In this document: in pieces, positions 1 to 42,369 of the stretch
How the letters are laid out: every line of letters starts with the position of its first letter
How positions within the stretch are numbered: the stretch's first letter is position 1
Assembly: GCA_964607165.1 (NCBI GenBank)
Contig: CAZSIT010000006.1
Span: 11,870-75,869, forward strand
Length of the DNA stretch: 64,000 bases
Source of the DNA: an uncultured Ignavibacteria bacterium
GTDB taxonomy: Bacteria > Zixibacteria > MSB-5A5 > DSPP01
Direction: 5' to 3'
Made by a program: the position numbers and the translations under genes
The notes under the pieces: model-generated
The model's input: the letters and a program-made list of their open reading frames with translations, nothing else
What the model was told of the DNA's origin: nothing
Database searches by the model: none

Positions 1-2540
1 AGCTGGACTATTAGTGGTGGCGGCGGCACCATAATAGGCTCCTCGACCGGCCAATGTGTTACCGTTCAAGCAAGCGGAACCTGCGGAACTTCTTATACCT
101 TAAATTTAACGGTCACCGGCGCCTGCGCCAGCAGCTGCAGCAAAACGGTTCTGGTTAAAGACAACATTAAGCCGACTATTGTCTGTCCGGCCGATATCGT
201 CGCCAGCAACGGCAACTGTTGCGCTAACGTCAGCTTTGCTCCCACCGTTAACGATAATTGCTCGGCAACCTTTGTCTGCACGCCTCCCTCCGGCTTCTGC
301 TTCCCGGTGGGAATGACCACCGTCAAGTGCGTGGCAACGGATGTTTGCGGCAACAAAGATAGCTGCACCTTCAAGATTACGGTCACCGATACGACCAAAC
401 CGACTATCGTCTGTCCGGCTAATATTGTTAAGAACACCGATCCGGGTCTGTGCTGTGCGGCGGCGACTTTTGCGCCCACCACCGGCGACAACTGCCCGGG
501 ACAAACCTTTACTTGTACTCCCCCTTCGGGCACCTGCTTCCCGGTCGGCGTGAATCCGGTAAAGTGTGTGGTGACCGATGCGGCGGGTAACAAGGATAGC
601 TGCAGCTTTACGGTTACGGTTACCGACAATTCCAAACCGACCATTGTCTGCCCGTCCAACATCAGCAAGAGTAACGATCCCGGTCAGTGCTGCGCGGCGG
701 CGACCTTTGCGCCCACCACCGGTGACAACTGCCCCGGAGAGACCTTTAGTTGCACGCCCCCTTCCGGCACCTGCTTCGGCATTGGGACGACTCCGGTCAA
801 GTGCGTGGTGACTGATGCGGCGGGTAACAAGGACAGCTGCACTTTCACGGTGACGGTCAGCGACACCGAGCCGCCTTCCATAGTTTGTCCGGCCGACATC
901 GTGGCCAGCAACGGCGGTTGCTGTGACGTCGTCAACTTTGCACCCACCGTTTCCGACAACTGCCCGGGAGAGACCTTTGCCTGTGTTCCGCCCTCCGGCT
1001 TCTGCTTCCCGGTCGGGATGACCACGGTAACCTGTACGGCCACCGATGCCGCAGGCAATCAAACTCCCTGCAACTTCAAGATTACGGTCACCGATACGTC
1101 CAAACCGACTATCGTCTGCCCGGCTAATATTGTTAAGAACACCGATCCGGGCCTCTGCTGTGCGGTGGCGACCTTTGCACCTACCACCGGCGACAACTGC
1201 CCGGGAGAGACCTTTGTCTGCACGCCTCCTTCCGGCTTCTGCTTCCCAGTCGGCGTGAATCCGGTCAAGTGCGTGGTGACCGATGCGGCGGGTAACAAGG
1301 ACAGCTGCACCTTCACAGTGACGGTCAGCGACAATTCCAAACCGACCATTGTTTGCCCGGCCAACATAACCAAAGGCACCGACCCCGGTCTGTGCTGTGC
1401 CGTGGCGACTTTTGCGCCTACCACCGGCGACAATTGCCCGGGAGAGATTTTTACCTGCACCCCGCCTTCCGGCACCTGCTTCGGCATTGGGACGACTCCG
1501 GTCAAATGCGTGGTGACTGATGCTTCCGGCAACAAGGACAGCTGCACTTTCACGGTGACGGTCAGCGACAACTCCAAACCGACCATTGTTTGCCCGGCCA
1601 ACATTACCAAAGGTACCGACCCCGGTCTCTGCTGCGCGGTGGCGACCTTTGCGCCAACGGTTGGTGATAATTGCCCCAATCCAACCTTCGTTTGCACGCC
1701 GCCTTCCGGCACCTGCTTCAACAAGGGAACGAATACTGTTAAATGTGTGGTGACCGATGCTTCCGGCAACAAAGACAGCTGCACGTTTACGGTAACGGTC
1801 AATGACAATACCAAGCCGACCATCACCTGCCCGGCCAATATCACCAAGGGCACCGACCCCGGTTTGTGCTGTGCGGTGGCGACCTTTGTACCTACGGTTG
1901 GTGACAATTGTCCCGGCCAGACTTTCACCTGCACGCCACCTTCCGGCACCTGCTTTAACGTCGGAACAAACACCGTTAAGTGCGTGGTGACCGACGCCGC
2001 CGGCAACAAGGACAGCTGCACCTTTACCGTAACGGTTACTGACAATACCAAGCCGAACATCGCCTGCCCGGCTAACATCACCAAGGGCACCGACCCCGGT
2101 CTCTGCTGCGCGGTGGCGACCTTTGCGCCAACGGTTGGTGACAATTGTCCCGGCCAGACTTTCACCTGCACGCCGCCTTCGGGAACTTGCTTTGCGATCG
2201 GGACAACCACGGTTAAGTGTGTGGTAACCGACGCCGCAGGCAACAAGGACAGCTGCACCTTCACGGTGACGGTCAATGACAATACCAAGCCAAGCATAGT
2301 TTGCCCGGCCAACATCACCAAAGGCAACGACCCCGGCCAGTGCTGTGCGGTGGCGACCTTTGCGCCGACGGTTGGCGACAACTGCCCTGGCCAGACTTTC
2401 AGCTGTACGCCACCTTCCGGTACCTGCTATCCGCTCGGCGTGAATACGGTCAAGTGCGTGGCAACCGACGCCGCCGGCAATAAAGACAGCTGCACCTTTA
2501 CGGTCACCGTCAACGATACGACCAAGCCCTCCATCGCCTG
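1..2540. repeat. Tandem coding repeat array, period 237 nt (79 aa), at least 11 units, several nearly identical at nucleotide level
   Basis: Recurring nt blocks ...aaaccgaccattgtttgcccggccaacat(c/a)accaaaggcaccgaccccggtctgtgctg... at about 237-nt spacing. The antisense long ORFs (106..2841 and others) are by-products of the repeats. Confidence 0.85.
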
Positions 2541-4563
2541 CCCGCCTGATAAAATAACGCCTCCAAGACAACCCGGAGTCTGTCCGGGCCCGGTGGTGAC
2601 CTATGAAGTACCGGCCACAGACAATTGCCCCGGTCCAATTACTGTAAATTGTATACCTCCATCGGGTTCGGCTTTCCCAGTTGGCATGACTACAGTTAAC
2701 TGCACCGCTACCGATGCCGCTGGCAATCAGAGCTCTTGCAGCTTCAAAGTAACCGTGCCGGCAACAGACCCGACATTCTTTGAATGTAAGGATACCGCCA
2801 GCAGCGCGAGTGTAAACGCCGTGGTGCAGATTCCGATACAAATTACTAATCCAAACCCGGCCTTTATTCTAAGCATCTGCGGCGCCACCCGGAATGGGTC
2901 GCCGGCCGTTCCCACCAATCCGCCGGCCATTCAGAACAACAATACTTTGGTTTGGGCGGTAAATGGGGACACCGGTTTCTGGTGCTTCTGCTTGAAACTT
3001 TCCGACGGATGCGATTCCGGCTTCTGCCAGGCATGCATCCAAGTCAACCCGCAGCAGTGTTTCCGGCTCTGCATTGAGACGGTTCATCCGCGGGTTCTGG
3101 GCGGAGATGTGAATGTATATATCAACAACTTGGTTGAAGCTTTCGACCCGGATGTTTTGCCTTACGGCGGGACCGTGGGCGGCTTTTCCTTCCTGCTCTC
3201 CTACGACTGTTCCTGCCTGCAGTTCATCAGCGCGGCAAAGGGAAGTCTGTTGGTTGAGCAGAGATGGGAGTTCTTCACCTACCGCTTTGGCGCATTGGGC
3301 AATGGCAACTGCGGTTCCGGCTGTCCAACCTGTCTGATTCGGATTGTGGCGATTGCGGACATCAACAACTCCAATATTCATCCGCCGCCTCCGCCGCGCA
3401 AGAACAAGGGACAGTGGGTTTGCTTGAAGTTCCGCACCTCCTCTGACCTGCGCTTGGCCGGGCTCTGCTGCCCGATTAACTGGTGGTGGTTCGATTGCTC
3501 CGACAACACCATCTCCGACTGGAGCGGCAACACGCTCTGGATAGTGGACTCTTTGTATACGCCGGAGGGCAATCCGATTGACTTGGCGACCACCTTCCCG
3601 ACGGTCAATGTAGAGGCCTGCAGCACCCTCACCGGAGGACCGGGAAAGCCGACTCCGAAACCGTGCATCATCTTCTGCAACGGCAAGATTTGCCTGCCGC
3701 CGATAGAGTCTTTGGACGACCGGGGTGATATCAACCTGAACGGGCTTTCCAACGAGATTGCCGATGCGGTCTTGTTTGAAACCTACTTCATCTTTGGAAC
3801 CAGCGTGTTCACCATCAGCGTGCCAGGCCAGACCGCCGCTACCGACATCAACGGCGACGGCCGCCCCTTGACGATAGCCGACCTGGTGGCTTTAACCCGC
3901 ATCATCACCGGTGACGCCAACCCGCTGCCCAAGGCCAATGCCGGCTTGGCTTCGGTTGACTTGAACTGGAGCTCGGACGGCAAGGAGTTGAAGTTTACCA
4001 CTTCCAGCACTTCCGAGATAGGCGGCCTCTTCGTACGCTTTAAATACAGCGGCGACGCCTCCGAACAAAACCTGTCGGCTCTGGCAAACTCTATGAACCT
4101 TAAAGCCAACGTGGCTGAAGGCGAATTAAGAGTATTGATTAACTCCGACATCAAGGGAGCGATGATTCCGGCCGGCAAGGCGACCTTTACGGTGCCGATA
4201 GATGGAGAAGTTGAGTTCGTAGAAGCTCAAGCTTCCAACTATTTTGGCCAGAGCCTGCCGGTGGTGAACAAGGCGACGCCGATACCGACCGCTTTTGGAT
4301 TGAGCCAGAACTATCCCAATCCGTTCAATCCAAAAACCAACTTTGTGCTCGCCTTGCCGGTGGCCAGCCACTACAATGTGACCATCTACAACCTGCTGGG
4401 CGAAGCGGTGCGCACCTTTGAGGGTGATGCTGCAGCCGGCAACAAGGTCATTACCTGGGATGCCACCGACCGCAACGGCAACGCGGTTTCTTCGGGACTT
4501 TACTTCTACAAAGCGGTCGCCGGACAGTTTGTGGCCAAAAAGAAAATGATTTTGATGAGGTAA
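1..4563 (+). CDS. 5'-truncated giant secreted surface protein: at least 12 tandem HYR (hyalin-repeat) domains, Ig-like region, cohesin-like module, dockerin-like Ca-binding module, second beta-sandwich, T9SS C-terminal sorting domain
   Basis: Frame 1 is open from nt 1, with no stop before the listed 307 start. Repeating 79-aa unit CPANI..DPGxCCAxATFAPTxGDNCPGxTFxCTPPSGxCF..VKCVVTDAAGNKDSCTFTVTV matches the HYR consensus. FSFLLSYDCSCLQFISAAKG...CLIRIVAIADINN resembles the cohesin strand 4-5 motif. DINLNGLSNEIADAVLFETYF...DINGDGRPLTIADLVALTRIITG matches dockerin repeats. The C-terminus NYPNPFNPKTNF...YFYKAVAGQFV...KKMILMR is a T9SS CTD. Confidence 0.8.
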   Translation, partial: SWTISGGGGTIIGSSTGQCVTVQASGTCGTSYTLNLTVTGACASSCSKTVLVKDNIKPTIVCPADIVASNGNCCANVSFAPTVNDNCSATFVCTPPSGFCFPVGMTTVKCVATDVCGNKDSCTFKITVTDTTKPTIVCPANIVKNTDPGLCCAAATFAPTTGDNCPGQTFTCTPPSGTCFPVGVNPVKCVVTDAAGNKDSCSFTVTVTDNSKPTIVCPSNISKSNDPGQCCAAATFAPTTGDNCPGETFSCTPPSGTCFGIGTTPVKCVVTDAAGNKDSCTFTVTVSDTEPPSIVCPADIVASNGGCCDVVNFAPTVSDNCPGETFACVPPSGFCFPVGMTTVTCTATDAAGNQTPCNFKITVTDTSKPTIVCPANIVKNTDPGLCCAVATFAPTTGDNCPGETFVCTPPSGFCFPVGVNPVKCVVTDAAGNKDSCTFTVTVSDNSKPTIVCPANITKGTDPGLCCAVATFAPTTGDNCPGEIFTCTPPSGTCFGIGTTPVKCVVTDASGNKDSCTFTVTVSDNSKPTIVCPANITKGTDPGLCCAVATFAPTVGDNCPNPTFVCTPPSGTCFNKGTNTVKCVVTDASGNKDSCTFTVTVNDNTKPTITCPANITKGTDPGLCCAVATFVPTVGDNCPGQTFTCTPPSGTCFNVGTNTVKCVVTDAAGNKDSCTFTVTVTDNTKPNIACPANITKGTDPGLCCAVATFAPTVGDNCPGQTFTCTPPSGTCFAIGTTTVKCVVTDAAGNKDSCTFTVTVNDNTKPSIVCPANITKGNDPGQCCAVATFAPTVGDNCPGQTFSCTPPSGTCYPLGVNTVKCVATDAAGNKDSCTFTVTVNDTTKPSIACPPDKITPPRQPGVCPGPVVTYEVPATDNCPGPITVNCIPPSGSAFPVGMTTVNCTATDAAGNQSSCSFKVTVPATDPTFFECKDTASSASVNAVVQIPIQITNPNPAFILSICGATRNGSPAVPTNPPAIQNNNTLVWAVNGDTGFWCFCLKLSDGCDSGFCQACIQVNPQQCFRLCIETVHPRVLGGDVNVYINNLVEAFDPDVLPYGGTVGGFSFLLSYDCSCLQFISAAKGSLLVEQRWEFFTYRFGALGNGNCGSGCPTCLIRIVAIADINNSNIHPPPPPRKNKGQWVCLKFRTSSDLRLAGLCCPINWWWFDCSDNTISDWSGNTLWIVDSLYTPEGNPIDLATTFPTVNVEACSTLTGGPGKPTPKPCIIFCNGKICLPPIESLDDRGDINLNGLSNEIADAVLFETYFIFGTSVFTISVPGQTAATDINGDGRPLTIADLVALTRIITGDANPLPKANAGLASVDLNWSSDGKELKFTTSSTSEIGGLFVRFKYSGDASEQNLSALANSMNLKANVAEGELRVLINSDIKGAMIPAGKATFTVPIDGEVEFVEAQASNYFGQSLPVVNKATPIPTAFGLSQNYPNPFNPKTNFVLALPVASHYNVTIYNLLGEAVRTFEGDAAAGNKVITWDATDRNGNAVSSGLYFYKAVAGQFVAKKKMILMR

Positions 4564-4704
4564 CTCGATGCGGCATCCGGCCGCTTCTAACAACAACTCC
4601 CGACGAAACTTGTTCCAAAGGGTGGTTTGGGAGGCTCAGGATATAACAGCCCGCCGCAAGGTGGGCTGTTATATTTTTGGAGGTTTTTGCAGAAGAACAA
4701 AAAA

Positions 4705-7683
4705 ATGACATCGAAAGCGTCTTTAATTCTCTTTTCTGCTCTGGTTTGGGTAATTCCTGCCTTCACCCAAGCCGCCATTCCCGACCCAAGAGATTCGGTT
4801 ATCGTCGAGCAGAAAGTCGTGGCTCCGGTTTTTGGCGCTTGCGCTTCTGCGCCGATAAAGGTGCGCGTTTGGGTCACGAACAAAGACAGCCTGGCTAATG
4901 TTACTTTTCCTTTAGAGGAAAAAAGCATTTCCGGCGGTGCTTACGCTATCATATCCCGTCCAGCTAATTGCTCGTCTGCTCGAACCAGTTCGACGGTGTT
5001 TGACTTTCTTTACCCGCCTGGACCCGGGACTGCACGCTTTCCTACCCGGGTCCCCAGTTTCAGTGGTTACCACAGCAACTCGCCAGATACATTTATGTTC
5101 ACAGGCACTTGCGACCCTACAGATGACGATACCAAATTGCCACCTAACTTAACCCGCGCAGCACTGTTGGATATCAAATTTGATAGTGTTACCGGTTTAG
5201 GCCAATTCCAAATCGACTCAACCAAGGTCCTGGGGAACACCTTACAGTTCGTAAGCACGTCGGGGAACGCAATTTTTGTCAACTTCGTCACAGGGATTAT
5301 CGCCAGCTGTGTTCCACATCAGCCCTTTAATAATTGTCAAGGTGCTAGTTCCAGTGTGTTATATGGACGGCCCTTCAATTACGTTTTCGCTTTGGGGGAT
5401 GTGCCAGGGACATATTCAGTAGTCTCCGGCCCAGGAACGATTGATGTCACCGGCTACTATACTTTTGCCGGTCAGTGCCCCCTGGATTTGGGCGGCATTC
5501 CGGTAACGGTTCGGTTTACCAGTAATACCCCACCCGGAGAGTGTGGTAGCGGGTCCGGCGATTGTCAATTCACAATCAAAGTGGTCGACAACCCGCCAGT
5601 CTGTTCACCCAACCAACCAAATATCACCGTTCCTCACGGTACTTTGGCCCAAAACATCATTACCGCTACAGACCCAGACTCGGGAGATGGGACAATAATC
5701 TCTCAATCAAGTGGCCCGGGGGCGGTCGTGGATAATGTGAATGGAACCGCTGACTGGAACTATCAGACTTCCTGCGAGGACGTGGGGCGCTCTCCACAAG
5801 AAGTGAATTTTTTGGTCAGGGATAAATTTGGCTCCTGCAATCCCGGCCCTTCTACCGCCGCCTGTCTTTTCTTTTTGGTTGTTACTAACGCTTCGCCGAG
5901 TATAACCAACTGCCCTTCAGAAACGATTTCTTTGCGGGGCGGTGAGCCGTTTAGTTTGGATTTGAACGCAACCGACACCGACCCGGGTGACAGCGATATA
6001 GATAATCATTTCTTTTTGAAAAGCGGCCCGGCCGGGTTAACCGTTTCACCATCCGGCGTAGTAAATTGGACACCAGATCTCACTCAAACCGATACCTGCG
6101 CGGTCATTGGCGTAAGCGATGCCTGTGGAGCCGCCGACAGCTGTGTAGTCTGCTTCGACGTCGTTTCCGGCCAGAAATTCCGTCTGTGCATTGACGTGGT
6201 TCATCCGCGTTTCCAGGGTGGTGATGTTAACGTTTACATCAACAACCTGGTGGAAGCCTTCGACCCGGACTGCGACACCGCCCACGGCGGCAGCGGCTGT
6301 GTGGGCGGCTTCTCCTTCCTGCTTACCTACGACTGTTCCTGCCTGCAGTTTATCAGCGCGTCCAAGGGACAGTTGTTGATCGACCAGCGCTGGGAGTTCT
6401 TCACCTACCGCTTCGGCGCTTTGGGCAACGGCAACTGCGGTTCCGGCTGTCCAACCTGTCTGATTCGGATTGTGGCGATTGCCGATATCAACAACAGCAA
6501 TATTCATCCGGTACCTTGCCCGCGCCCGAACCAGGGTCAGTGGGTGTGCTTGAAGTTCCGCACCTCCTCTGATTTGCGGTTGGCCGGGCTCTGCTGCCCG
6601 ATTAACTGGTACTGGCTGGATTGCACGGACAACACTGTTTCGGATGCCACCGGCAATTGCCTCTGGATTGCCTGCGCGATTTTGAACACGGACGGGGATA
6701 CCTTACCCCTGCCGACCGAACCGGTCAACGTGTACAACTGCAGATTCAATTCGGGTGGCGAAAACAAGCCGACTCCGAAGCCGTTCATCATCTTCTGCAA
6801 CGGCCAGATTTGTCTGCCGCCTTTGGAGTCCTTGGACGACCGCGGAGACATCAACCTGAACGGTTTGGCCAACGAGATTGCCGACGCGGTCTTGTTTGAA
6901 AGCTACTTCACCTATGGTACCAGCGTGTTTGTAATCAACGTGGCCGGCCAGACCGCCGCTACCGACATCAACAGCGACGGCCGTCCTTTGACGATAGCCG
7001 ACCTGGTGGCTCTGACTCGCATCATCACCGGCGACGCCAACCCGCTGCCCAAAGCCAACGCCGGTGCTGCTTCTGTTGACCTAAACTGGAGTTCAGACGG
7101 CAAGGAGTTGAAGTTTACCACTTCCAGCACTTCCGAGATAGGCGGCCTCTTCGTACGCTTTAAATACAGCGGCGACGCCTCCGAACAAAACCAATCGGCT
7201 TTGGACAATTCTATGAAGCTTAAGGCCGGCGTGGCGGAAGGCGAATTAAGAGTATTGATTAACTCCGATGTCAGGGGAGGTATGATTCCGGCCGGAAAAG
7301 CCACCTTTACTGTGGCGATAGAAGGAGAAGTGGAGTTTGTAGAAGCTCAAGCTTCCAACTATCAAGGCCAGAGCCTGCCGGTGGTAAACAAAAAGGCGGC
7401 TTTGCCCACTTCATTCGCTTTAAGCCAGAACTATCCTAATCCGTTCAATCCGAAGACCAACTTTGTGCTCTCCTTGCCGGTGGCCAGCCGTTACAAGGTA
7501 ACCATTTACAACCTGCTGGGCGAAGCGGTGCGCACCTTCGAAGGTGATGCTGCGGCCGGCAACAAGGTCATTACCTGGGATGCCACCGACCGCAACGGAA
7601 ACACGGTTTCTTCGGGAATTTACTTCTACAAGGCGGTAGCCGGACAGTTTGTCGACAAGAAGAAAATGATTTTGATGAGGTAA
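4705..7683 (+). CDS. Secreted T9SS cargo protein, paralog of the upstream gene: signal peptide, Ig-like/cadherin-like N-terminal domains, then the same cohesin-like, dockerin-like, beta-sandwich and T9SS CTD cassette
   Basis: ATG at 4705 gives MTSKASLILFSALVWVIPAFTQA, a signal peptide. The ORF-track start at 4627 is probably upstream of the true start. The C-terminal 500 aa are nearly identical to the C-terminus of the first protein. The T9SS CTD NYPNPFNPKTNFVLSLP...KKMILMR is present. Confidence 0.8.
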   Translation: MTSKASLILFSALVWVIPAFTQAAIPDPRDSVIVEQKVVAPVFGACASAPIKVRVWVTNKDSLANVTFPLEEKSISGGAYAIISRPANCSSARTSSTVFDFLYPPGPGTARFPTRVPSFSGYHSNSPDTFMFTGTCDPTDDDTKLPPNLTRAALLDIKFDSVTGLGQFQIDSTKVLGNTLQFVSTSGNAIFVNFVTGIIASCVPHQPFNNCQGASSSVLYGRPFNYVFALGDVPGTYSVVSGPGTIDVTGYYTFAGQCPLDLGGIPVTVRFTSNTPPGECGSGSGDCQFTIKVVDNPPVCSPNQPNITVPHGTLAQNIITATDPDSGDGTIISQSSGPGAVVDNVNGTADWNYQTSCEDVGRSPQEVNFLVRDKFGSCNPGPSTAACLFFLVVTNASPSITNCPSETISLRGGEPFSLDLNATDTDPGDSDIDNHFFLKSGPAGLTVSPSGVVNWTPDLTQTDTCAVIGVSDACGAADSCVVCFDVVSGQKFRLCIDVVHPRFQGGDVNVYINNLVEAFDPDCDTAHGGSGCVGGFSFLLTYDCSCLQFISASKGQLLIDQRWEFFTYRFGALGNGNCGSGCPTCLIRIVAIADINNSNIHPVPCPRPNQGQWVCLKFRTSSDLRLAGLCCPINWYWLDCTDNTVSDATGNCLWIACAILNTDGDTLPLPTEPVNVYNCRFNSGGENKPTPKPFIIFCNGQICLPPLESLDDRGDINLNGLANEIADAVLFESYFTYGTSVFVINVAGQTAATDINSDGRPLTIADLVALTRIITGDANPLPKANAGAASVDLNWSSDGKELKFTTSSTSEIGGLFVRFKYSGDASEQNQSALDNSMKLKAGVAEGELRVLINSDVRGGMIPAGKATFTVAIEGEVEFVEAQASNYQGQSLPVVNKKAALPTSFALSQNYPNPFNPKTNFVLSLPVASRYKVTIYNLLGEAVRTFEGDAAAGNKVITWDATDRNGNTVSSGIYFYKAVAGQFVDKKKMILMR
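6178..7683. repeat. About 1.5-kb duplicated 3' gene cassette (partner copy 3061..4563), about 85-90% nt identity with embedded 50-115 nt stretches of 100% identity
   Basis: Identical runs such as aactgcggttccggctgtccaacctgtctgattcggattgtggcgattgc and ggcaaggagttgaagtttaccacttccagcacttccgagataggcggcctcttcgtacgctttaaatacagcggcgacgcctccgaacaaaacc occur in both copies. Confidence 0.9.
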
Positions 7684-7814
7684 CATTAGGAATAGTATGA
7701 GGTTAGAAAATATTCTGTTTAAAGCCGCTTTTTTATTGACATTTAATTGGGCAGGCAGTATACTTAGGGTGGCATCCAGAGGGTGGGAGGCCGGTAAGGA
7801 AGTTGGAGGTTGAT

Positions 7815-9212
7815 ATGAAATTGTCTTATCTTCGCCAAACCGCCCTAAAAATCGCCAAAAAAATCTCATTCTTAATTTTTGCTATCCTTTTGCCTGCTTT
7901 GGCTTCCGCCCAGCCACCCCCATCGCTGACCGATTCGCTGATTCTCGACTGGTGGATATTCGTTCCTGCCGGTCAAACGACCGTCTCGGTCCAAATTTCT
8001 TTGACCAATTCCGTGCCGATTTCCGGCATAACCGGACGAATGGTTTTTGACAACGGTATTTTATCCCCGATAATCGATTCCATTTCCGGCTTTGTTTCGG
8101 CAGAACGGGTTGGGCGAGGGATGGCACTCTCAAATTTCGCTGCCAGGTCACCCCAGCCGGGTGTAATTACTTTCCTTATGCTCACCAATTTTTTCCCAAT
8201 AGAGAAAATCGAGCCGGGCAGTGGCCCCGTCTGCCGGATTAATTTCAACGTCCTCACCGCCAGCGATACCACTACCTGCGTGTATTTTGAAAATGATCCC
8301 GATCCGATTGGCATCAGAAACCAGCTTTCTGACGCCAACGGCTATATCGTTATCCCCTCCCTCCAACCGGGAAGTTTGGTAATCGGGATAGGTAGTCCGA
8401 CCGGCAGTTGCTTTCCAGTCGAACCAATTGACAACACCGGCGATTTGAACTTGAATGGATTGCCATACGAAATCGGCGATTTTGTAACGTTTGAAAATTA
8501 CTTTATATATGGGGATGCAGTTTTTAACATAAACCCAACCGAGCAAGCTCTTGCTTCCGACGTTAACCGGGACGGCCTACTGCTGCGCGTTGCCGACCTG
8601 GTCTTTTTGGAACGAGTCATTCTCGGCGAGATTAATCCCCTCCCGGCACAAACTATTGCATCGGTTTCGGACACGGCTCAATTCGAAATAGTCCAAACCT
8701 CCGACCAATTGGTTCTTTCCTACGCCTCCCCAATCGATTTGAGCGGCTTTTTCCTGCGCCTGACGTTCCTTGGCACGGCTGGAGACCCAATCCGCCTGGA
8801 CTCGTCTCCCAATATGGATTTTGGCAGCCAAATATATCCCGGCGAACTGCGCTTCCTTTTGGTTTCTTCCCTTCAAACCCCTTTGGGGAAAATTCCCGCG
8901 GGCAGCGGGCCTTTGCTTTCCATCCCGTTTAACGGCAATTTAAGAGGCGTTGAAATACAAGCTTCGACCACGGAAGGGGAGGAAGTGGCAACCACCGGCT
9001 CCTATCCCATCGACAGCCGCGGGGACCTGAATGCCGACGGGCTTCTTACCCCCTCCGACGTCGTATCGGAGCTTAATTGTGCACTTGTATCCGCTTTGAA
9101 TTGTCCTCTTTCCCTGACGGATTTGACCTGTGATGGAATGCTCACCACCTCTGATGTAGTCCTTATCTTGAACGCGACATTCTTAGGAGAAACTCTACCT
9201 CAATGTCCTTGA
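7815..9212 (+). CDS. Secreted adaptor-like protein: signal peptide, cohesin-like module, internal dockerin-like module, second beta-sandwich, C-terminal double dockerin repeat (no T9SS CTD)
   Basis: GGAGG lies upstream of the ATG at 7815. MKLSYLRQTALKIAKKISFLIFAILLPALASA is a signal peptide. TTVSVQISLTNSVPISGITGRMVFDNGILSPI...GPVCRINFNVL is cohesin-like. DLNLNGLPYEIGDFVTFENYF...DVNRDGLLLRVADLVFLERVILG is homologous to the dockerin module of the two upstream genes. The C-terminus is DLNADGLLTPSDVVSELNCALVS...LTCDGMLTTSDVVLILNATFLGETLPQCP. Confidence 0.7.
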   Translation: MKLSYLRQTALKIAKKISFLIFAILLPALASAQPPPSLTDSLILDWWIFVPAGQTTVSVQISLTNSVPISGITGRMVFDNGILSPIIDSISGFVSAERVGRGMALSNFAARSPQPGVITFLMLTNFFPIEKIEPGSGPVCRINFNVLTASDTTTCVYFENDPDPIGIRNQLSDANGYIVIPSLQPGSLVIGIGSPTGSCFPVEPIDNTGDLNLNGLPYEIGDFVTFENYFIYGDAVFNINPTEQALASDVNRDGLLLRVADLVFLERVILGEINPLPAQTIASVSDTAQFEIVQTSDQLVLSYASPIDLSGFFLRLTFLGTAGDPIRLDSSPNMDFGSQIYPGELRFLLVSSLQTPLGKIPAGSGPLLSIPFNGNLRGVEIQASTTEGEEVATTGSYPIDSRGDLNADGLLTPSDVVSELNCALVSALNCPLSLTDLTCDGMLTTSDVVLILNATFLGETLPQCP

Positions 9213-9570: not shown

Positions 9571-9582
9571 GACGGTTGCAAA

Positions 9583-9745
9583 AGTTTCGGCGCTCGTCGA
9601 GCTTAATAGGGAAGGCGGTTAAAATCCGCCGCAGCCCCGCTACTGTAAGCAGCCGAGCCCGCCGCAAAAAGCCACTGTCCGCCGGAGGCGGATGGGAAGG
9701 CGCGGCGGGTTGCTGTAAGCCAGGAGACCTGCCGGAACAAGAACC
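9583..9745 (+). promoter_or_regulatory. Cobalamin (B12) riboswitch
   Basis: Conserved blocks AATAGGGAAGGCGGTTAAAATCCGCCGCAGCCCCGCTACTGTAAGC and the B12 box GCCAGGAGACCTGCC sit in the 5' leader of a TonB-dependent receptor gene. Confidence 0.85.
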
Positions 9746-9767
9746 ATAAACCTTCGCGGGAAGGAGA

Positions 9768-11963
9768 ATGGAAAGTCTATTCTCGCCCAAGGCGGGAATT
9801 TTTTTTCGCCTTCGGGAAACAGTCAAACTCCTCGTCGCCCTATTGGTGGGGACATCTGTTCCTTTATGGGCGGAATCTAACCTTAAAATCTCCGGTCAAA
9901 TTTTTGATCGTAACACTGGGCAGCCCTTAGGCAGTGTTACCGTCAGAATCATTGAAAGCGGAAATCAAACAAGCACCGATATGCAAGGGAGGTTTACCTT
10001 TTACGATTTGCCAGAAGGAAAGTATCGCCTTGTTTCTAATCCTCCCTCCTATCGTGCTGAAACACTCACTGTAAAAGTTTCCACCGCCGGAACAGCTGAA
10101 ATAGCGTTTTGGCTCGAACCGGAGCCAATAACCGGCCCACCCACAATAGTGACGGCTGACATTACAACCGAGGCAGCTTTGGAACCGAGCTTAGTTTTCA
10201 CGCGCTCGGATATGGAGAAATCGAAAAATCTTTCGATTGCACAATTTCTTTCACATCAGCCCGGGTTGGACATAAAAACGGGCGGAGTTTACGGCTCGAC
10301 GGAAGAGGTGACCATTCGAGGCGGCGCCGCCAATCAGACGCTGGTGCTTTTCGATGGCCGGCCTTTAAACTCCAATCTGGGCGGAACGGCCGATTTAAGC
10401 TTCGTCAGACTGGCTAATCTCGAAAGAATCGAGGTGTACAAAGGAAGCCAAACGGCGCGTTTTGGGCCGGATGCAGTCGCCGGTGTTGTTATTTTAACTT
10501 CCAGAAAGCCGAATCCCCAAGAGCATTTGACTCCACAAATTTCCTATGAAAAAGGAAGTTTTGGATACCAATCAACAAACTTTGAATCGAATCTTGCTTT
10601 CGTACCAAACGCATCCGCCAACATCTTTTATCAAAATCTTTCTAACCGAGGCGATTTTACTTATGCAGATAAAAACGGTGATTATGAGAGGGTGAACAGC
10701 TACGTTTGGACCAACCGGGCAAATGGAAAATTAAGCTATGGAAATTTTGAAACCGCTTTTTTCTGGGCTAAAGCCCGGCGCGGGCTTCCGGGAGCGCTGC
10801 TCCAGCTTACGCCAAACGCCCAAGAAAAAGATGAACGATTTGGAATAACCTTAAACCGGAAGCTGTATTCAAACAGGGGGTGGTTTTTTGAGCCTTCAGC
10901 GAGCTGGGATAAACTTACCCAAAGCTTCAAATTACCTGATGGATTTGTAAAAACTGACACTCGTTATAAAACTGAAAAAAGAAAGCTGGAGACGGGTGCG
11001 GGAAAACGTTTGACAAACCAAAAGTATCAAATCAGTTTTGATTTTCTCGAAAGCTCTTTAAAAGGAGAGGATTTTATCCGACCCAGTCAAAGCCTGGGAA
11101 AGACCATTCGTCGTTCGGGTGGCCTTTCCGCGGCCTTCGACCGGCAAGTGCCGTTCAAAGGCCATTTGTCGGCCAGCGCCTCGGGCGCGTCGAGAATGGA
11201 TTGGACCGACTTCACAAAGCCGGCTTACTCTCCCCTTCTTTCGGCCGCTTTGAATTATGACAAGAAAATCAAAACGAGAGTTTTTGGCTCCTGGGGTAAA
11301 AGCTTCCGGCTGCCGACTTTAGACGCGCTATTCTGGAAAGAGGATGTTTTTGCCGCCGGCAACCCGGCCCTTCTTCCCGAGCGCGCAGAAAGCCGGGAAA
11401 CGGGTTATCGAATTACTTTCCCAATCCTTGGAAAATTGAACTGGGAACAAAATTTCTTTCATAACGACCTGAAGAATCTAATTATCTGGCAAAGACGGTT
11501 TGACGGGAAGTTCATCCCTCAAAACATTTCCAAGGCCAAAATTTTTGGCCGGGAGGAAAAGGCGCTCTGGCAGCTCTCCAAAATTCTTGAACTGGAATTC
11601 AACCATACCCAAACCGAGCCAATAAACGAGGAGGATTTTGTTCTGCATCAAGGAAAACAATTGGTGTTTCGACCGCGACATATTTACAATGCGCGTATTG
11701 CCGCCAGCTACAAAATTGCCACTTTAAATCTAACTGGCCGTTGGGTAAGCAAGCGATTCACCCGGGCTGAAAACACAAAATATTTGCCACCTTATGAAAC
11801 CTACGACGCCTTCTTTGCATTAGCTCCAAAACTCCGGAAATTCAACTGGAACTTTTCTTTAGCCATCGAAAACTTTACAGGCAGACAGTATGAAATTTTA
11901 GAACGTTACCCGGTGCCGTGGCGCAGTTTCAAATTTTCGCTGGAAATCAAATGGAGGGATTAA
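9768..11963 (+). CDS. btuB: TonB-dependent outer-membrane receptor (BtuB-like cobalamin receptor) with N-terminal carboxypeptidase-regulatory-like domain
   Basis: AAGGAG RBS. Signal peptide, CarbopepD_reg-like N-terminus (ISGQIFDRNTGQPLGSVTVRI...GKYRL), plug/TonB-box region (TIVTADI...), 731 aa, C-terminal aromatic residue. A cobalamin riboswitch lies directly upstream. Confidence 0.75.
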   Translation: MESLFSPKAGIFFRLRETVKLLVALLVGTSVPLWAESNLKISGQIFDRNTGQPLGSVTVRIIESGNQTSTDMQGRFTFYDLPEGKYRLVSNPPSYRAETLTVKVSTAGTAEIAFWLEPEPITGPPTIVTADITTEAALEPSLVFTRSDMEKSKNLSIAQFLSHQPGLDIKTGGVYGSTEEVTIRGGAANQTLVLFDGRPLNSNLGGTADLSFVRLANLERIEVYKGSQTARFGPDAVAGVVILTSRKPNPQEHLTPQISYEKGSFGYQSTNFESNLAFVPNASANIFYQNLSNRGDFTYADKNGDYERVNSYVWTNRANGKLSYGNFETAFFWAKARRGLPGALLQLTPNAQEKDERFGITLNRKLYSNRGWFFEPSASWDKLTQSFKLPDGFVKTDTRYKTEKRKLETGAGKRLTNQKYQISFDFLESSLKGEDFIRPSQSLGKTIRRSGGLSAAFDRQVPFKGHLSASASGASRMDWTDFTKPAYSPLLSAALNYDKKIKTRVFGSWGKSFRLPTLDALFWKEDVFAAGNPALLPERAESRETGYRITFPILGKLNWEQNFFHNDLKNLIIWQRRFDGKFIPQNISKAKIFGREEKALWQLSKILELEFNHTQTEPINEEDFVLHQGKQLVFRPRHIYNARIAASYKIATLNLTGRWVSKRFTRAENTKYLPPYETYDAFFALAPKLRKFNWNFSLAIENFTGRQYEILERYPVPWRSFKFSLEIKWRD

Positions 11964-11967
11964 AACC

Positions 11968-13167
11968 GTGAGAAGATTTTTATCATTGTTTCTATTTATC
12001 TTCGTGTTCTTCTGCTATCACCTAATCTCTGCTCAAAGCGCTCGATTGTGGGTGGTGAATGGTTTGGCAGAAACCGCCAGCCGCGTCATTTTAGATAGCG
12101 GAAATGTATCTAACCATATAATTACGCTCGGTTTGATACCCAACCAAATAGTTTCGGAAGGCAATTTTCTCTTGGCCGTAAACTCCGGCTCCAATAATAT
12201 TCAGATTTTCAACCGCCACACGCTGGCCGAAATCGGAACCGTCGAGCTTGGGGCTAACCGAAATCCCTGGAATTTGGTTATGGCCGATTCGACAATCGGC
12301 TATGTGACTAATCTGGTAACCGGAACGGTGTCTAAGTTCAACCGGTTGAGTAGAACAGTACTGAAAGAGTTTTCGGCGGGTCAATCTCCAGAAGGTATTA
12401 CTTATGCCAAAGGGAAAATTTGGGTTTGCAATACGGCATTTAATCCCAACAATTTTTCATACGGCCAAGGCGAAATAGCGGTAATTGACCCGGTAGCCGA
12501 TTCTGTCGTGAAGAAAATAAACGTGGGAACCAATCCACAGGCCATTAAGCAGGCGCCGGATGGAAAACTCATCGCTGTCTGTACGGGAGACTTCGGTTCG
12601 GTCAGCGGTACGCTCTATGTTATTGACCCAATTACGGAAACCGTAACGGATAGCATTCTGACCGGAGGCACCCCCTCCACCGCTGCGGTCACCCACACCA
12701 ACATCGCCTATCTGCCGGCGGGCGGTTTTGTGGGCAGCGGTCTGCTGTTCAAGGTGAACCTGAATACAAAAACGGTTGAACGCGGCCCGGGAAATCCAAT
12801 TTTGGTGGGAACGGGAGCGACGGATGCCATCTACGATATTGACAGCAATTATGTTTATGTAGCCTGTTTTTCGGACGGAACGGTAAGAAAAATAAACTCC
12901 GCCGACTCGGTGGTAACCAGTTTTTTGGCAGGCGATGGCCCGGTTTCACTGGATATCGCCTATCCTTTTCCGCTGGGAGACTTGAATGGAGATGGCCTGT
13001 CAACCTCCGCCGATGCCGTGATTTTGCTCAACTGCGTCTTTTTGGGATGCGCGCCGCCCCCCCGAAATTCCCAAGCCGATGCCAACCGGGACGGCCTTTG
13101 GACCTCCGCCGACGTGGTGTGCGAACTAAATCACGTTTTTCTGGGAAGCCGATTGCCCTGCCGTTGA
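11968..13167 (+). CDS. Secreted YVTN-family 7-bladed beta-propeller protein with C-terminal double dockerin repeat; candidate BtuG-like surface B12-capture protein
   Basis: Signal peptide. Contains the IGYVTN motif and repeated 40-residue blades. C-terminus DLNGDGLSTSADAVILLNCVFLG...DANRDGLWTSADVVCELNHVFLGSRLPCR. The gene starts 5 nt after btuB, inside the riboswitch operon. Confidence 0.6.
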   Translation: MRRFLSLFLFIFVFFCYHLISAQSARLWVVNGLAETASRVILDSGNVSNHIITLGLIPNQIVSEGNFLLAVNSGSNNIQIFNRHTLAEIGTVELGANRNPWNLVMADSTIGYVTNLVTGTVSKFNRLSRTVLKEFSAGQSPEGITYAKGKIWVCNTAFNPNNFSYGQGEIAVIDPVADSVVKKINVGTNPQAIKQAPDGKLIAVCTGDFGSVSGTLYVIDPITETVTDSILTGGTPSTAAVTHTNIAYLPAGGFVGSGLLFKVNLNTKTVERGPGNPILVGTGATDAIYDIDSNYVYVACFSDGTVRKINSADSVVTSFLAGDGPVSLDIAYPFPLGDLNGDGLSTSADAVILLNCVFLGCAPPPRNSQADANRDGLWTSADVVCELNHVFLGSRLPCR

Positions 13168-13179
13168 GAAAGGAGCGAT

Positions 13180-13530
13180 ATGAAAAAACTTTTCCTTATA
13201 ATTACGATTCTGACCCTAACGATTAGCTGTGGAACAAAGGAAAAAACAGATACATCCGCGCAGCTTGACACCACCCTGACCGTGAGCTATTTTGGCGCCC
13301 AGGGTAAAACGGTGCTCAAACTTCTGGAAACTTCTCACAGAATAGAAAAGAAATCTTCCTCTATTGGAAGTTTTGTGGAATCGATAGATGGCGTGAAAAA
13401 TCGTTCCAATCGTTTTTGGCTCTACTATGTGAATGGGAAAAAACCGGATGTGGCTTCGGATCGATATACGACTCACACAAACGACACCGTTGAATGGCGT
13501 TTTGAAGCCGCGATAAAGGAGGAAAAATGA
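13180..13530 (+). CDS. DUF4430-like small lipoprotein (domain family associated with cobalamin uptake loci)
   Basis: MKKLFLIITILTLTISCG resembles a lipoprotein signal. FWLYYVNGKKPDVASDRYTTHTNDTVEWRF matches the DUF4430 W.YyVNG...Y.l.dgD.i.W.y pattern. Confidence 0.55.
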   Translation: MKKLFLIITILTLTISCGTKEKTDTSAQLDTTLTVSYFGAQGKTVLKLLETSHRIEKKSSSIGSFVESIDGVKNRSNRFWLYYVNGKKPDVASDRYTTHTNDTVEWRFEAAIKEEK

Positions 13531-14021
13531 TTTATCTATTCGCTTTGCTTGCCGTAGTCTTGAGGCTTTTGCCCCACGCCCCCAATTTTGCCCCGATGGG
13601 AGCTTTGGCGCTTTGGGCCGGAATGTCGGGCGACAAAAGAAAAGTTTGGATTCCCTTGCTGGCAGTTTTCTTCAGCGACTTATTCCTGGGTGGCTACCCC
13701 GGTTTTGTTTGGGTTTATGCCTCATATTTTTGCATATTTTTCAGCGGATATTTAACCAAGCAAACTTCCGGCTTGGCCCGATACCTCGGAGCGCCAATAG
13801 CCGGCGCCTCCATTTTTTATTTGGTTTCCAATTTTGGGGTCTGGGCCGGCGGCTCGATGTATCCGGCGACCCCGGGCGGCTTGGCCCAATGCTATGTGGC
13901 CGCCCTGCCGTTTTTTCGCAATACCCTGGCGTCGGATGCCTTGTATTTCAACGCTTTCATCCTCCTTAACAAAATCTTTGCAACGCTAAAAAATTATCAA
14001 TTGGCGTTAAGGTTTCGTTAA
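13527..14021 (+). CDS. Small polytopic membrane protein, possible ECF-type S-component / BtuM-like solo vitamin transporter
   Basis: ATGA start/stop overlap with the upstream gene. 164 aa with about 5 hydrophobic helices. LPHAPNFAPMGALALWAGM is reminiscent of S-component motifs. It is the last gene of the B12 riboswitch operon. Confidence 0.4.
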   Translation: MIYLFALLAVVLRLLPHAPNFAPMGALALWAGMSGDKRKVWIPLLAVFFSDLFLGGYPGFVWVYASYFCIFFSGYLTKQTSGLARYLGAPIAGASIFYLVSNFGVWAGGSMYPATPGGLAQCYVAALPFFRNTLASDALYFNAFILLNKIFATLKNYQLALRFR

Positions 14022-23155: not shown

Positions 23156-25414
23156 TTATCCGCTCAAGGTTTTACTTTTTACTTCAAGCAACCACTTTTG
23201 AAATTCCGTCTCTTTCCGGATTTCATCCAGGAACGGGTTGTATTCCAAAAAGACCCATAAAATTTTGTTTTCTTTTATTCCCCTTTTTATCCATTCAAAA
23301 GCCTTAGCTTGGTCTTGCAGAAGAACGTAGGTCAAAATCAAGTTTTCTACGACATCTTCATCCAACGACATCTCTTTCAACGCTTTCTTCAACTCTGCTT
23401 TTGCCTCGGACACTTTTCCCAGCCCGGCATGGATAGCCGCCAGGCCCGAAACTCCCGCCGGATCGCCGCCGTGGACGCTAACGTACTTGTGCATACATTC
23501 CAAAGCCGCGGCGTAATTTCCTTGAAAAAAATAAATTCTGGAAAGTATGAAATTTCCAATTTCCTGATGGGCCGGTTCTTTGGATTGCAAAACGCGCTGA
23601 ATACTCGCTTCCGCCTGAAGGAAATTATTTAAGCCCAGATAGAAGCGGGCCAAAAGCCACAAGGCCAGATACAGGGTGGGGTCGTTTTCGTAGGCCAACC
23701 GATACTCTTGCTCGGCTTTCTCAAATTCTCCCAGATAGAGATAGGTTGTACCTAAATTAGCCCGAGCCACCGCCAGCGTTGTATTAAGTTGCAAGGCCCT
23801 GCGGAGATGCTCTTTCGCCTTTTTAAATTGCCAGACCTTATAGTAATACGTGCCTAACGCTTTGTGGGCTTCGGCACTATAAGGATCTTTATCCACCGCT
23901 TGCAGGGCGGCAATTTCCGCATCTTTAAGAATTTGCTTGTCGCTTTCAAAACCCCGATCAATCAATTGAATGTAGCTGTCCGCCAAACCCGCATACGCCA
24001 GCACGTAATCCGGGTCAATCGTCAGAGCCTGCCTGAAAAACTGAACGGCTCTCCATAAGTCTTCTTTGTCGTACTTATGATACAAACTTCTCCCTTTAAG
24101 GTATAATTCGTATGCCTCCAAGCTGCCCCGATACCGCTGGCCAATATCTTCTTCTTCCTTTTTGGAAACTTTTCCCTTTATCGCCCGGGCAATATCCTTG
24201 GCTAATTCTTCCTGAAGTTCAAAAACCTGCTTAAACTCACGGATGTACGTATCGCCCCACAAGTTAGCCAGCGTTTTGGGATCTACCAACTGGGCCGTAA
24301 TTCTTATGCGCTCCCCTTGCTTCCATACCGATCCCCGTAAGATATGGTCAACTTTCAATCGTTCCGCAAGAAAGGGAATATCGACTGGTTTATCTTTAAA
24401 AGGCCGAACCACATCGCGCGCTCGTACTTGAACACCCTCAATTTTGGTTAAATCGTTGATTATTTCTTCGGTAATTCCGTCCGAGAAGTATTCGGTCTCT
24501 CGGTCTTCGCTTTTATTTTCGAAAAACAGAACCGCGATAGACTTTTGGGCCGGTGGTTCCAGCTCTCTTTGTTCCGTCGTCCGCCCTTTGGTTTTATCCT
24601 TGAATCCTTTTAGTTCGGCCAATAAATCTTCGGTGTCTTTAAACCGATCCTCTTTTTTCTTTGCCAGGGCTCGGTCGACAATCTTCTGAAGCTCAACCGA
24701 AGCCTGCTGATTGTATCGACTTAGCGGAAGGGGATCGTCAAATTGAATGGCGTAATAAATGGCCGCCTTGTGTTCCCCATCAAAGGGAAGGCGGCCGGTA
24801 ATCATTTCGTACAAAACTACCCCAAAGGAGAAAATATCGGTTCTGGCGTCAATCTCCTTATCGCCACGGGCTTGCTCGGGAGAAGTATATCCCTCCGTTC
24901 CCATCGTCACACCGCTTTGGGTCAACCGGGAAGCATCCTTGAGCCGGGCCAACCCAAAATCGATTAACTTTACTTGGTCGTCCCGATAAAGCAGAATATT
25001 CTTTGGGGTGATATCGCGATGAGTCACTCCGACTCGGTGAGCGGCGTTCAATCCTTCGCAAATTTTAATCCCAATATCAACGGCCCGGCCTATTGGAACG
25101 CCTGAATGACCAATTGATTCTTTTAAAGATTTTCCGTCAATATACTGCATGGAAATGTAGTACCGGCCGTCAAATTCGCCGACGTCATAAACGGTTATAA
25201 TATTTTGATGGTCCACAGCGGCAATGGATACCGCCTCCCGTCGAAATCGGCTCTTGGCCTCTTCATCGGAACTGTATTCTGAATTTAAAACCTTGAGCGC
25301 CACTTTACGGGGCAAATTAAGGTCTTCGGCCAACCAGACCACTCCAAAGCCGCCCCGGCCCAGCTCTTTAAGTATTTTGAAATGGGAGAAGGTTTGGCCT
25401 ATCATCGGGCCCAT
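23156..25414 (-). CDS. Ser/Thr protein kinase with C-terminal TPR array
   Basis: GRGGFGVVWLA Gly-loop, AHRVGVTHRDITPKNILL catalytic loop, DFG, then TPR repeats. The probable start is MGPMIGQ (the ORF extends to 25513). Confidence 0.8.
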   Translation of the reverse strand: MGPMIGQTFSHFKILKELGRGGFGVVWLAEDLNLPRKVALKVLNSEYSSDEEAKSRFRREAVSIAAVDHQNIITVYDVGEFDGRYYISMQYIDGKSLKESIGHSGVPIGRAVDIGIKICEGLNAAHRVGVTHRDITPKNILLYRDDQVKLIDFGLARLKDASRLTQSGVTMGTEGYTSPEQARGDKEIDARTDIFSFGVVLYEMITGRLPFDGEHKAAIYYAIQFDDPLPLSRYNQQASVELQKIVDRALAKKKEDRFKDTEDLLAELKGFKDKTKGRTTEQRELEPPAQKSIAVLFFENKSEDRETEYFSDGITEEIINDLTKIEGVQVRARDVVRPFKDKPVDIPFLAERLKVDHILRGSVWKQGERIRITAQLVDPKTLANLWGDTYIREFKQVFELQEELAKDIARAIKGKVSKKEEEDIGQRYRGSLEAYELYLKGRSLYHKYDKEDLWRAVQFFRQALTIDPDYVLAYAGLADSYIQLIDRGFESDKQILKDAEIAALQAVDKDPYSAEAHKALGTYYYKVWQFKKAKEHLRRALQLNTTLAVARANLGTTYLYLGEFEKAEQEYRLAYENDPTLYLALWLLARFYLGLNNFLQAEASIQRVLQSKEPAHQEIGNFILSRIYFFQGNYAAALECMHKYVSVHGGDPAGVSGLAAIHAGLGKVSEAKAELKKALKEMSLDEDVVENLILTYVLLQDQAKAFEWIKRGIKENKILWVFLEYNPFLDEIRKETEFQKWLLEVKSKTLSG

Positions 25415-25617
25415 TATCTTGCGGGCTCTATCAAAAAAATCATCCGGCAAACTTCGACAGTTCAATAATTTTACACAAAAATGAATAATAACAAATTGGG
25501 CAATGTTAAACAACCGAATAAAGCTTAACGGTCAATCTGAAAGGGCCGCCAACCCGTCGGGAAAGCCCCAAACCAATTGGAGAAAAATGAAGAACCGGAT
25601 AAATGCGATGAAAACAA

Positions 25618-25693
25618 TAGCCCCGGCCCGATTCGAACGGGCGACCAACGGTTTAGGAAACCGCTGCTCTATCCAATCTGAGCTACGGGGCCC
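25618..25693 (-). tRNA. tRNA-Arg (anticodon CCT)
   Basis: The minus strand reads GGCCCCGTAGCTCAGATTGGATAGAGCAGCGGTTTCCTAAACCGTTGGTCGCCCGTTCGAATCGGGCCGGGGCTA. Cloverleaf with anticodon loop TTCCTAA, T-loop TTCGAAT, G1-U72 wobble, no encoded CCA. Confidence 0.85.
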
Positions 25694-28118: not shown

Positions 28119-28305
28119 AAATAAGCTCCTCTTTTTAACTTCCAAACAAATCACCAACTCACCGGCAAGAACCGGCACTGCCCAACACCCTCAAAAGTAG
28201 TATAAGTCCTAAGACCTTATCTGTCAATCACTTTTTCGGGTTCAACCAGGTCTGAAAGAGGAGGAGCCCCCCCGTAAAAAAAGCTCCGAATAAGTTAGCT
28301 GGGCC

Positions 28306-37856: not shown

Positions 37857-38118
37857 GAAAACTTAGAAACTCTCCATTTGACAGAGCGGAAGAACACTCG
37901 TAACTTAAAGCTTTAATATTTTTGTTTGGTTTTAGAGATTAGCAATTCTATGCAAGCGCTTTCAATGGGATGATTCCCACACTCAAAACCGGGTGATAAC
38001 AAAAAGGCTGACAAACAGTTACTGCTCTAATTTTCTGGTAGTCTTCGGGCACAAAGGTTGCGTGGTTAAAGCACGGGAAAAGCCCCGCAAGCCTGGGGCC
38101 GAAAAAAGGAGAAAACGG

Positions 38119-42014: not shown

Positions 42015-42369
42015 GTCGAACCGCCAAACTCCTATTTTGACCGGCATCTTTTCAATCACGGGGCTTAGTTAATCAAACCCCGTGCCCTTATGCCTGAATT
42101 TGGCAACTATCTAACCCTTTGATTTCTAAGGGGTTACAAACTCGACTTTAGGGTCAGCCGTGTATGTCGGAAAACTTTTCCAAAAAGGGGCGGAAAAAAG
42201 GGGCTTTTTCACAAGCAAGTATGGGAGTTACCCTATAGCAAAAAACAAGATTTTTGCATTTTGAAATCAGTTGAAAAAATGCATAAACAGAATCTTTGTT
42301 TCCCTGTTGCAAGCTAAACAAAAAATTGTGGGTTGATTTTTGAAGGTAAAAGGACGAGATTTTCTGTCG

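Follow-up and report, generated by a model that had tools for sequence, protein, structure and literature searches.

A cohesin-dockerin cassette ending in a type IX sorting domain on adhesin-like proteins of Zixibacteria: candidate building block of a surface network

We analyzed a 64-kb stretch of DNA from an uncultured member of the Zixibacteria (contig CAZSIT010000006.1, positions 11,870 to 75,869; hereafter the window, in whose numbering positions are given). Three neighbouring open reading frames (ORFs) on the plus strand, p1, p2 and p3, lie at its start. p1 and p2 share a C-terminal cassette in which a divergent cohesin, a dockerin, an immunoglobulin (Ig)-like beta-sandwich and a type IX secretion system (T9SS) sorting domain follow one another, and related modules in p3 end in a terminal dockerin. 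We propose that such proteins form a surface cohesin-dockerin network anchored via the sorting domains. The pairings, the Ca2+ binding and the export are inferred, and we judge the probability of this network to be evenly balanced.

p1 (1..4563, +) encodes a giant surface protein that is truncated at its 5' end by the window edge, leaving 1520 residues visible. An array of HYR repeats, matched by PF02494 in the Pfam scan (E = 2e-125) in 11 stretches and comprising at least 11 repeats, is followed by the cassette. p2 (4705..7683, +; 992 residues) has a variable N-terminal half with a Big_9 Ig domain ahead of a p1-type cassette. p3 (7815..9212, +; 465 residues) is adaptor-like and consists of a compact cohesin-fold candidate, an internal dockerin, an Ig-like sandwich and a terminal dockerin, without a sorting domain. 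Sec-type signal peptides were read from the translations at the N-termini of p2 and p3, indicating that both are secreted. The ORFs confirm the three consecutive genes of a first-pass annotation of this DNA. Its observation that p1 and p2 end in the same module series also held: the last ~530 residues (p1 995-1520, p2 465-992) are 80% identical, with 83.5% nucleotide identity over 1519 nucleotides at the DNA level, a sequence likeness far above chance expectation. The feature start that it had set at position 2540 had to be moved, as this position falls inside the HYR array; the shared cassette begins in p1 at nucleotide ~3040. Over the HYR array (window 1..4000) the G+C content was 0.57-0.58, compared to ~0.47-0.51 in most of the window, and long antisense ORFs on the minus strand (106..2841 and 1059..2381) were treated as artefacts of the GC-rich repeats. 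A terminator-like hairpin was found 3' of p1 and a promoter-like site (TTGACA-17-TATACT) 5' of p3. The three genes need not form a single operon.

The trio is kept in a related genome (loci L001-L003), where p3 is 87% identical and the p1 orthologue has 1882-1934 residues. The p2 orthologue (L001 7545..9866) is shorter, with 747-752 residues, and carries two cohesins ahead of the dockerin, in place of the 490-residue non-cohesin N-terminal half of p2 in the window. Orthologues of this N-terminal half exist, and no cohesin signal was detected in it. On this comparison, the passenger part appears to be remodelled fast while the cassette is retained.

The identity of the first sandwich was established with family profiles and structure, since both the Pfam and the NCBIfam scans of p1-p3 returned neither cohesin nor internal dockerin. 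Pfam Cohesin (PF00963) gave zero matches for p1, p2 and p3 at E ≤ 1, and its curated threshold was thus not reached. Hidden Markov models (HMMs) of the individual modules, derived from 83 homologues of the p2 cassette, detected a long cohesin-like module in p1 and p2 only. In p1 it spans residues 1015-1232 (3043..3696, +; family HMM E = 2e-69) and in p2 6160..6816 (+). The two copies are 80% identical, and it is the p2 module whose model resembles cohesins. An AlphaFold2 model of the cassette (mean predicted local distance difference test (pLDDT) 86.9, predicted template modelling score (pTM) 0.64) showed in the first sandwich the nine-stranded jelly-roll of solved cohesins, and Foldseek agreed with a cohesin fold. 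Among the 83 homologues, 28 matched Pfam Cohesin at E ≤ 0.1 (best 6.6e-6). The profile built from them matched ~15 solved cohesins in the PDB (E 0.005-0.3) and one dockerin, each where expected. By model and profile, the first sandwich of p1 and p2 is a cohesin fold, and we refer to it as a divergent cohesin, with ~80 residues of Cys-rich insertions.

The same HMMs found the internal dockerin and the second sandwich in all three proteins. The internal dockerin of p1, residues 1236-1311 (3706..3933, +; family HMM E = 9e-38), consists of two repeats, each a 13-residue Ca loop followed by a helix, and matched a loop-pair regular expression; the p2 copy lies at 6826..7053 (+). Loop positions 1, 3, 5 and 13 (D-x-N-x-[ND]-G...D) vary little or not at all among the 83 sequences, and the loops exceed the canonical length of 12 by one residue. 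The duplicated Ca2+-loop-plus-helix (F-hand) motif and three-helix fold of type I dockerins (PF00404) are both present. Pfam Dockerin_1 did not match the internal dockerins of p1, p2 or p3; 21 of the 83 homologues reached it at E ≤ 0.1 (best 2e-5), and hhalign aligned the internal dockerin with canonical terminal dockerins from this lineage, several of which exceed the Pfam threshold, at a probability of 94-96%. The internal double repeat has a dockerin fold and would be expected to bind Ca2+. The second sandwich, at residues 1317-1424 of p1 (3949..4272, +; family HMM E = 4e-28) and at 7063..7395 (+) in p2, was considered as a second cohesin. The top Foldseek match was indeed a cohesin dyad (3l8q) covering both sandwiches; this assignment was rejected and the module called a generic Ig-like domain of no assigned family, because hhalign showed no profile similarity.

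The tails of p1 (4312..4551, +) and p2 (7432..7671, +) scored 38.2 and 38.6 bits, respectively, against TIGR04183 (cutoff 23), as the first-pass annotation had anticipated when it assigned T9SS C-terminal domains to both proteins. PF13860 (FlgD_ig) likewise scored above its threshold of 27 (34.5 and 33.9 bits), and PF18962 slightly below a threshold of 27 (25.3 and 26.6 bits). Both proteins thus end in a T9SS type A sorting domain, which lies at the very C-terminus and exceeds the curated TIGR04183 cutoff. T9SS export and surface anchoring of the cassette proteins in this organism are inferred; our literature search returned no paper connecting Zixibacteria with type IX secretion.

In p3, two of the three modules of the cassette body are recognizable by sequence. 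Residues 201-391 align to p1 and p2 at 37% identity (E = 1e-32), covering only the dockerin-like module and the second sandwich. This dyad (8421..8993, +) was detected by the module HMMs at E = 3e-31 and 1e-13, and it is the confident part of the p3 model (pLDDT >90), the other parts being weaker. The compact N-terminal beta-sandwich, residues ~36-200 (7920..8414, +), was modelled with pLDDT 46-79 and gave Foldseek matches to cohesins with template modelling scores of 0.6-0.69. No sequence similarity to the p1/p2 cohesin was found for it (hhalign probability <5%), so its assignment relies on fold; the sole PDB match of its profile was a type II cohesin, with an E of 0.6 that falls short of significance. 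We consider it a candidate cohesin of a second type. The claim that p3 has the same cassette as p1 and p2 therefore stands for the dockerin and the sandwich, and for the third module only through a fold of moderate confidence. The p3-type N-module is also present at the head of some larger sorting-domain proteins in other genomes. As for the proposal that p3 ends in a terminal dockerin instead of a sorting domain, its tail (9012..9209, +) has canonical 12-residue loops, a conserved C-terminal Cys and a three-helix pattern in the model. Its Dockerin_1 score of 14.1 bits is below the gathering score of 22.9; p3 orthologues (87% and 57% identity) retain the architecture, and their terminal dockerins carry PF00404. 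A profile of p3-like terminal tails recovered PF00404-annotated proteins as short fragments only, which did not reveal the types of cargo.

For the p2 cassette, 160 homologues were detected, of which almost all came from Zixibacteria or GN15 metagenome-assembled genomes (MAGs) and almost all ended in a T9SS sorting domain. A full HMMER scan retrieved 1523 representative clusters at E ≤ 1e-3 and 576 at E ≤ 1e-30. In species-representative genomes we counted at least 490 cassette loci, most labelled Zixibacteria and some Ignavibacteria or FCB-group MAGs, with more than one copy in several genomes. The cassette is located almost always ~85 residues from the C-terminus, in host proteins of 436-3626 residues, and public annotation describes these proteins only as "T9SS type A sorting domain-containing protein". 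When architectures were read with the per-module HMMs in 286 proteins, 205 showed the order cohesin-dockerin-sandwich-sorting domain. In others, the full unit is present two to three times, or as many as four cohesins stand in tandem (P0145, P0182, P0152), and such tandem runs occur also without dockerins. Dockerin-sandwich dyads are present in one to three copies per protein, with or without a cohesin, and are repeated in cohesin-free form in P0239 and P0124. Bodies that are otherwise alike differ in their tail, which is a sorting domain in some and a terminal dockerin in others. The family combines modules and tails by the same logic as anchoring and adaptor scaffoldins.

In other genomes, cassette genes are arrayed in tandem, two to four at a time. 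In 8 species-level genomes (raw count), a homologous small cohesin-plus-dockerin protein is encoded directly upstream of a cassette gene on the same strand. Its N-domain aligned with the cassette cohesin profile at an hhalign probability of 91% (E = 1e-6), and its tail reached the Dockerin_1 gathering score in 3 of 7 scanned copies (26.2, 29.9 and 40.4 bits), the remaining 4 giving no match at E ≤ 0.01. A second small dockerin-tailed family (~284 residues) follows arrays of three to four cassette genes at L030 (e.g. 11683..12534), L038 and L046; no relation of its N-domain to cohesin profiles was detectable. The tandem-cohesin relatives, the alternating tails and the neighbouring cohesin-plus-dockerin genes point at the family level in the direction taken by the first-pass annotation.

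Within the window, three dockerin-tailed proteins lack a sorting domain, and cohesin-fold modules were found in p1, p2 and p3 only. Besides p3, these possible ligands are two secreted propellers. The YncE-type propeller (11968..13167) has a terminal dockerin at 12964..13164 (+), with a Dockerin_1 score of 20.7 bits (gathering score 22.9) and a match to the PDB dockerin 2y3n_B (E = 2e-4). The LVIVD-repeat propeller (25737..28178, -) has its terminal dockerin at 25740..25946 (-), above the gathering score with 23.2 bits; this secreted protein also carries a CarboxypepD_reg domain, and a tRNA gene lies just downstream (25618..25692, -). Aligned terminal dockerins of the lineage, including those at 9012..9209, 12964..13164 and 25740..25946, share conserved Cys residues, with an invariant Cys in the last one to four residues and the motif ...LPxC[P/L/R]. 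Clostridial dockerins are without such conserved Cys residues, and their presence here suggests stabilization by disulfides.

The YncE-type propeller is encoded next to a TonB-dependent receptor (9768..11963), which is preceded by a cobalamin riboswitch (RF00174, 115 bits, 9571..9750). The order over 9571..14021 (+) is riboswitch, receptor, propeller, a DUF4430 ORF that is also seen in syntenic loci, and DUF6580 (13527..14021). The propeller shows weak similarity to Bacteroides BtuG1 (8blw_B, E = 1.5e-4). BtuG of Bacteroides is a surface lipoprotein. Reading of the propeller sequence revealed no lipobox, and as a dockerin is present, this hints that the dockerin may serve as the surface tether. 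The region looks like a B12-uptake operon whose surface B12-capture protein has a dockerin, not a lipid anchor.

Elsewhere in the window, a T9SS-sorted protein with BACON_2 and Por_Secre_tail/FlgD_ig domains (37993..40017, +) and an FG-GAP repeat protein (35509..36846, +) represent surface proteins without the cohesin-dockerin cassette. The window also encodes a single-chain type IIG-like restriction-modification enzyme with Eco57I, N6_Mtase, TaqI_C and N-terminal HSDR_N domains (42340..45303, +), two Ser/Thr protein kinases fused to TPR arrays (23156..25513, - and 52856..55087, -) and a GAF-PAS histidine kinase (28306..30540, -).

In the proposed network, p1 and p2 would be Sec-exported, T9SS-sorted surface proteins, each combining a variable adhesin-like passenger (HYR or Ig repeats) with the linker-less C-terminal cassette. 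The sorting domain would direct export and covalent attachment to the surface, and the cassette cohesins would receive, in trans, the dockerins of other proteins. Some of these would belong to the internal dockerin-sandwich dyads of adjacent cassette proteins, resulting in cross-linking or polymerization. Others would be the terminal dockerins of p3, the BtuG-like propeller and the LVIVD propeller, none of which has a sorting domain. p3, with its cohesin-fold module, dockerin-sandwich dyad and canonical terminal dockerin, may function as an adaptor. Together, these proteins would build an outer-surface network of non-cellulosomal type. A more far-reaching version is speculative, and we hold it to be unlikely: cohesin-dockerin pairing would replace lipid anchoring as the general means of surface retention in Zixibacteria. 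The sorting-domain cassette proteins would then be anchors and possibly, because T9SS moves folded proteins, carriers; dockerin-tailed proteins such as the BtuG-like propeller would dock, perhaps in the periplasm, and be co-exported or retained, and one-cohesin-one-dockerin cassettes would polymerize head-to-tail into a lattice.

Several findings speak against the network. The cohesin and internal dockerin of the window are silent in Pfam, and genes for the T9SS machinery (SprA, PorK/L/M/N, PorU/V) were absent from the 64 kb, the rest of the genome not having been searched. How dockerin-tailed proteins without a sorting domain would cross the outer membrane of a diderm cell is not accounted for. 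Moreover, the modules follow one another directly, the median gap over 305 junctions being 0 residues, and their order is fixed in most proteins, unlike the linker-separated modules of cellulosomes. The internal dockerin is the most conserved part, with 63% mean identity; the sorting domain has 53%, the cohesin 41% and the sandwich 30%. This, too, is unlike cellulosomal modules, which diversify in specificity. These properties fit the main rival, a structural stalk, in which cohesin, dockerin and sandwich constitute one rigid, Ca2+-stabilized pedestal between passenger and anchor. The internal dockerin would pack in cis and recruit nothing, and terminal dockerins would bind other partners. The phylum-wide conservation of the internal dockerin extends to positions that vary with specificity in cellulosomes, and the interdomain junctions of the three-domain model have pLDDT 73-76 at a pTM of 0.64. 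In T9SS cargo, the sorting domain is commonly preceded by an Ig-like domain, for example in gingipain RgpB. However, dyads occur free of cohesin, in p3-type proteins as well as in P0239 and P0124, and cohesins occur in dockerin-free runs of up to four, indicating that the modules are separable units. Canonical terminal dockerins, furthermore, need cohesin partners, and the only cohesin folds found near them were those described here. On balance, we regard a stalk as rather doubtful, though deserving of serious consideration.

A cellulosome-like scaffold, on which anchored cohesins gather dockerin-tailed enzymes degrading polysaccharide or protein, has been proposed for the related uncultured lineages Cloacimonadota (PMC8542988) and Latescibacteria (Farag 2017, as cited in PMC7081726), and scaffoldin-like relatives with multiple cohesins do exist in the present family. 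The partners, however, do not fit. The dockerin-tailed proteins seen were beta-propellers (YncE/BtuG-like, LVIVD), p3 and small cohesin-dockerin proteins; those of the window and 10 related loci contained no catalytic or carbohydrate-binding module (CBM) domain in Pfam, and the GH57 protein of the window carries no dockerin. The hallmark of a cellulosome, dockerin-bearing carbohydrate-active enzymes (CAZymes) on a cohesin scaffoldin, usually with a CBM, was not found in this set. The passengers are HYR or Ig adhesin-like, and Pfam scans of window proteins and homologues detected no CBM. An enzyme scaffold is therefore improbable. Finally, the resemblance might be due to chance, the modules being generic Ig-like sandwiches and loops of EF-hand type with no relation to either family, in keeping with the lack of Pfam Cohesin or Dockerin_1 matches in p1 and p2 and with E values of only 0.005-0.3 against PDB sequence profiles. 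But one third of the homologues reach the Pfam families, the hhalign probability against terminal dockerins is high, and Foldseek supports the cassette model, so that this explanation is effectively refuted. The first-pass annotation had foreseen such an outcome if the modules scored below profile thresholds and also folded as unrelated Ig-like domains or EF-hand-less loops. Of the profiles it named, TIGR04183 and HYR (PF02494) passed, while the window copies of Cohesin and internal Dockerin_1 fell below the Pfam thresholds. The folds, in contrast, proved cohesin-like and dockerin-like by model, Foldseek, homologue profiles and hhalign, and the combination as a whole did not arise.

In textbooks, the pairing of cohesin with dockerin is the principle by which Gram-positive cellulosomes are assembled, and synthetic biology makes wide use of it as a tool. 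Here, the two modules are part of a fixed cassette joined to a type IX anchor. Hundreds of adhesin-like proteins carry this cassette in a diderm phylum that is uncultured, and there is no sign of cellulose degradation. If they bind as their folds suggest, the surface of Zixibacteria would be built as a plug-and-socket network. This would provide a testable model for the retention of surface proteins that have neither lipid anchor nor sorting domain, such as the B12-capture propeller. It would also yield a large number of divergent, orthogonal pairs in which the cohesin is rich in disulfides and the dockerin has Ca loops of 13 residues. With a profile made for the cassette, ~1,500 protein clusters could be annotated.

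The view of the first-pass annotation that a T9SS-anchored cohesin/dockerin system was undescribed is too strong, because non-cellulosomal modules, Latescibacteria enzymes and a T9SS scaffoldin from Cloacimonadota had been reported. Williams et al. 2021 (PMC8542988) proposed in silico that Candidatus Stygibacter (Cloacimonadota) has a scaffoldin in which tandem cohesins are combined with a T9SS C-terminal domain, together with dockerin-tailed enzymes. Shared features are cohesins on a protein with a T9SS C-terminal domain in an uncultured FCB-group relative, dockerin-tailed secreted proteins in the genome, and surface attachment proposed to occur through the sorting domain (PMC8542988). The Stygibacter scaffoldin, however, is a single 3,755-residue protein with tandem Pfam-detectable cohesins, CBM2/CBM3 and enzyme partners (PMC8542988), whereas the Zixibacteria unit is a linker-less one-cohesin-one-dockerin-one-sandwich cassette on hundreds of differing adhesin-like proteins, Pfam-silent in the window copies and with no CBM or enzyme partner seen. 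Latescibacteria have been reported to possess cellulosome-affiliated enzymes (Farag 2017, as cited in PMC7081726). Our literature search found no paper on Zixibacteria and dockerin and no direct match for Latescibacteria with dockerin and cohesin; a match of T9SS and scaffoldin on Tannerella was false, arising from the word "scaffolding". Non-cellulosomal cohesin-dockerin modules are also known (Peer et al. 2009, PMC3035643, as cited in PMC8542988). Examples such as the Archaeoglobus fulgidus cohesin 2xdh and the glycoside hydrolase cohesins of Clostridium perfringens are scattered single proteins, in contrast to the phylum-wide, multi-copy fixed cassette with a T9SS tail. Clostridial anchoring and adaptor scaffoldins (CipA/SdbA/OlpB of C. 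thermocellum, ScaA/ScaB/ScaC of A. cellulolyticus, ScaB/ScaE of R. flavefaciens) are held by SLH repeats or an LPXTG anchor, compared to the T9SS sorting domain in what is presumably a diderm cell. Relative to them, the cassette lacks Pro/Thr linkers and CAZyme cargo, has Ca loops of 13 instead of 12 residues and long Cys-rich cohesin insertions, and places the dockerin before the sandwich, the reverse of X-Doc. Three traits appear to be undescribed: the fixed cohesin-dockerin-sandwich-sorting domain cassette without linkers, its 13-residue Ca loops, and its phylum-wide spread on adhesin-like proteins.

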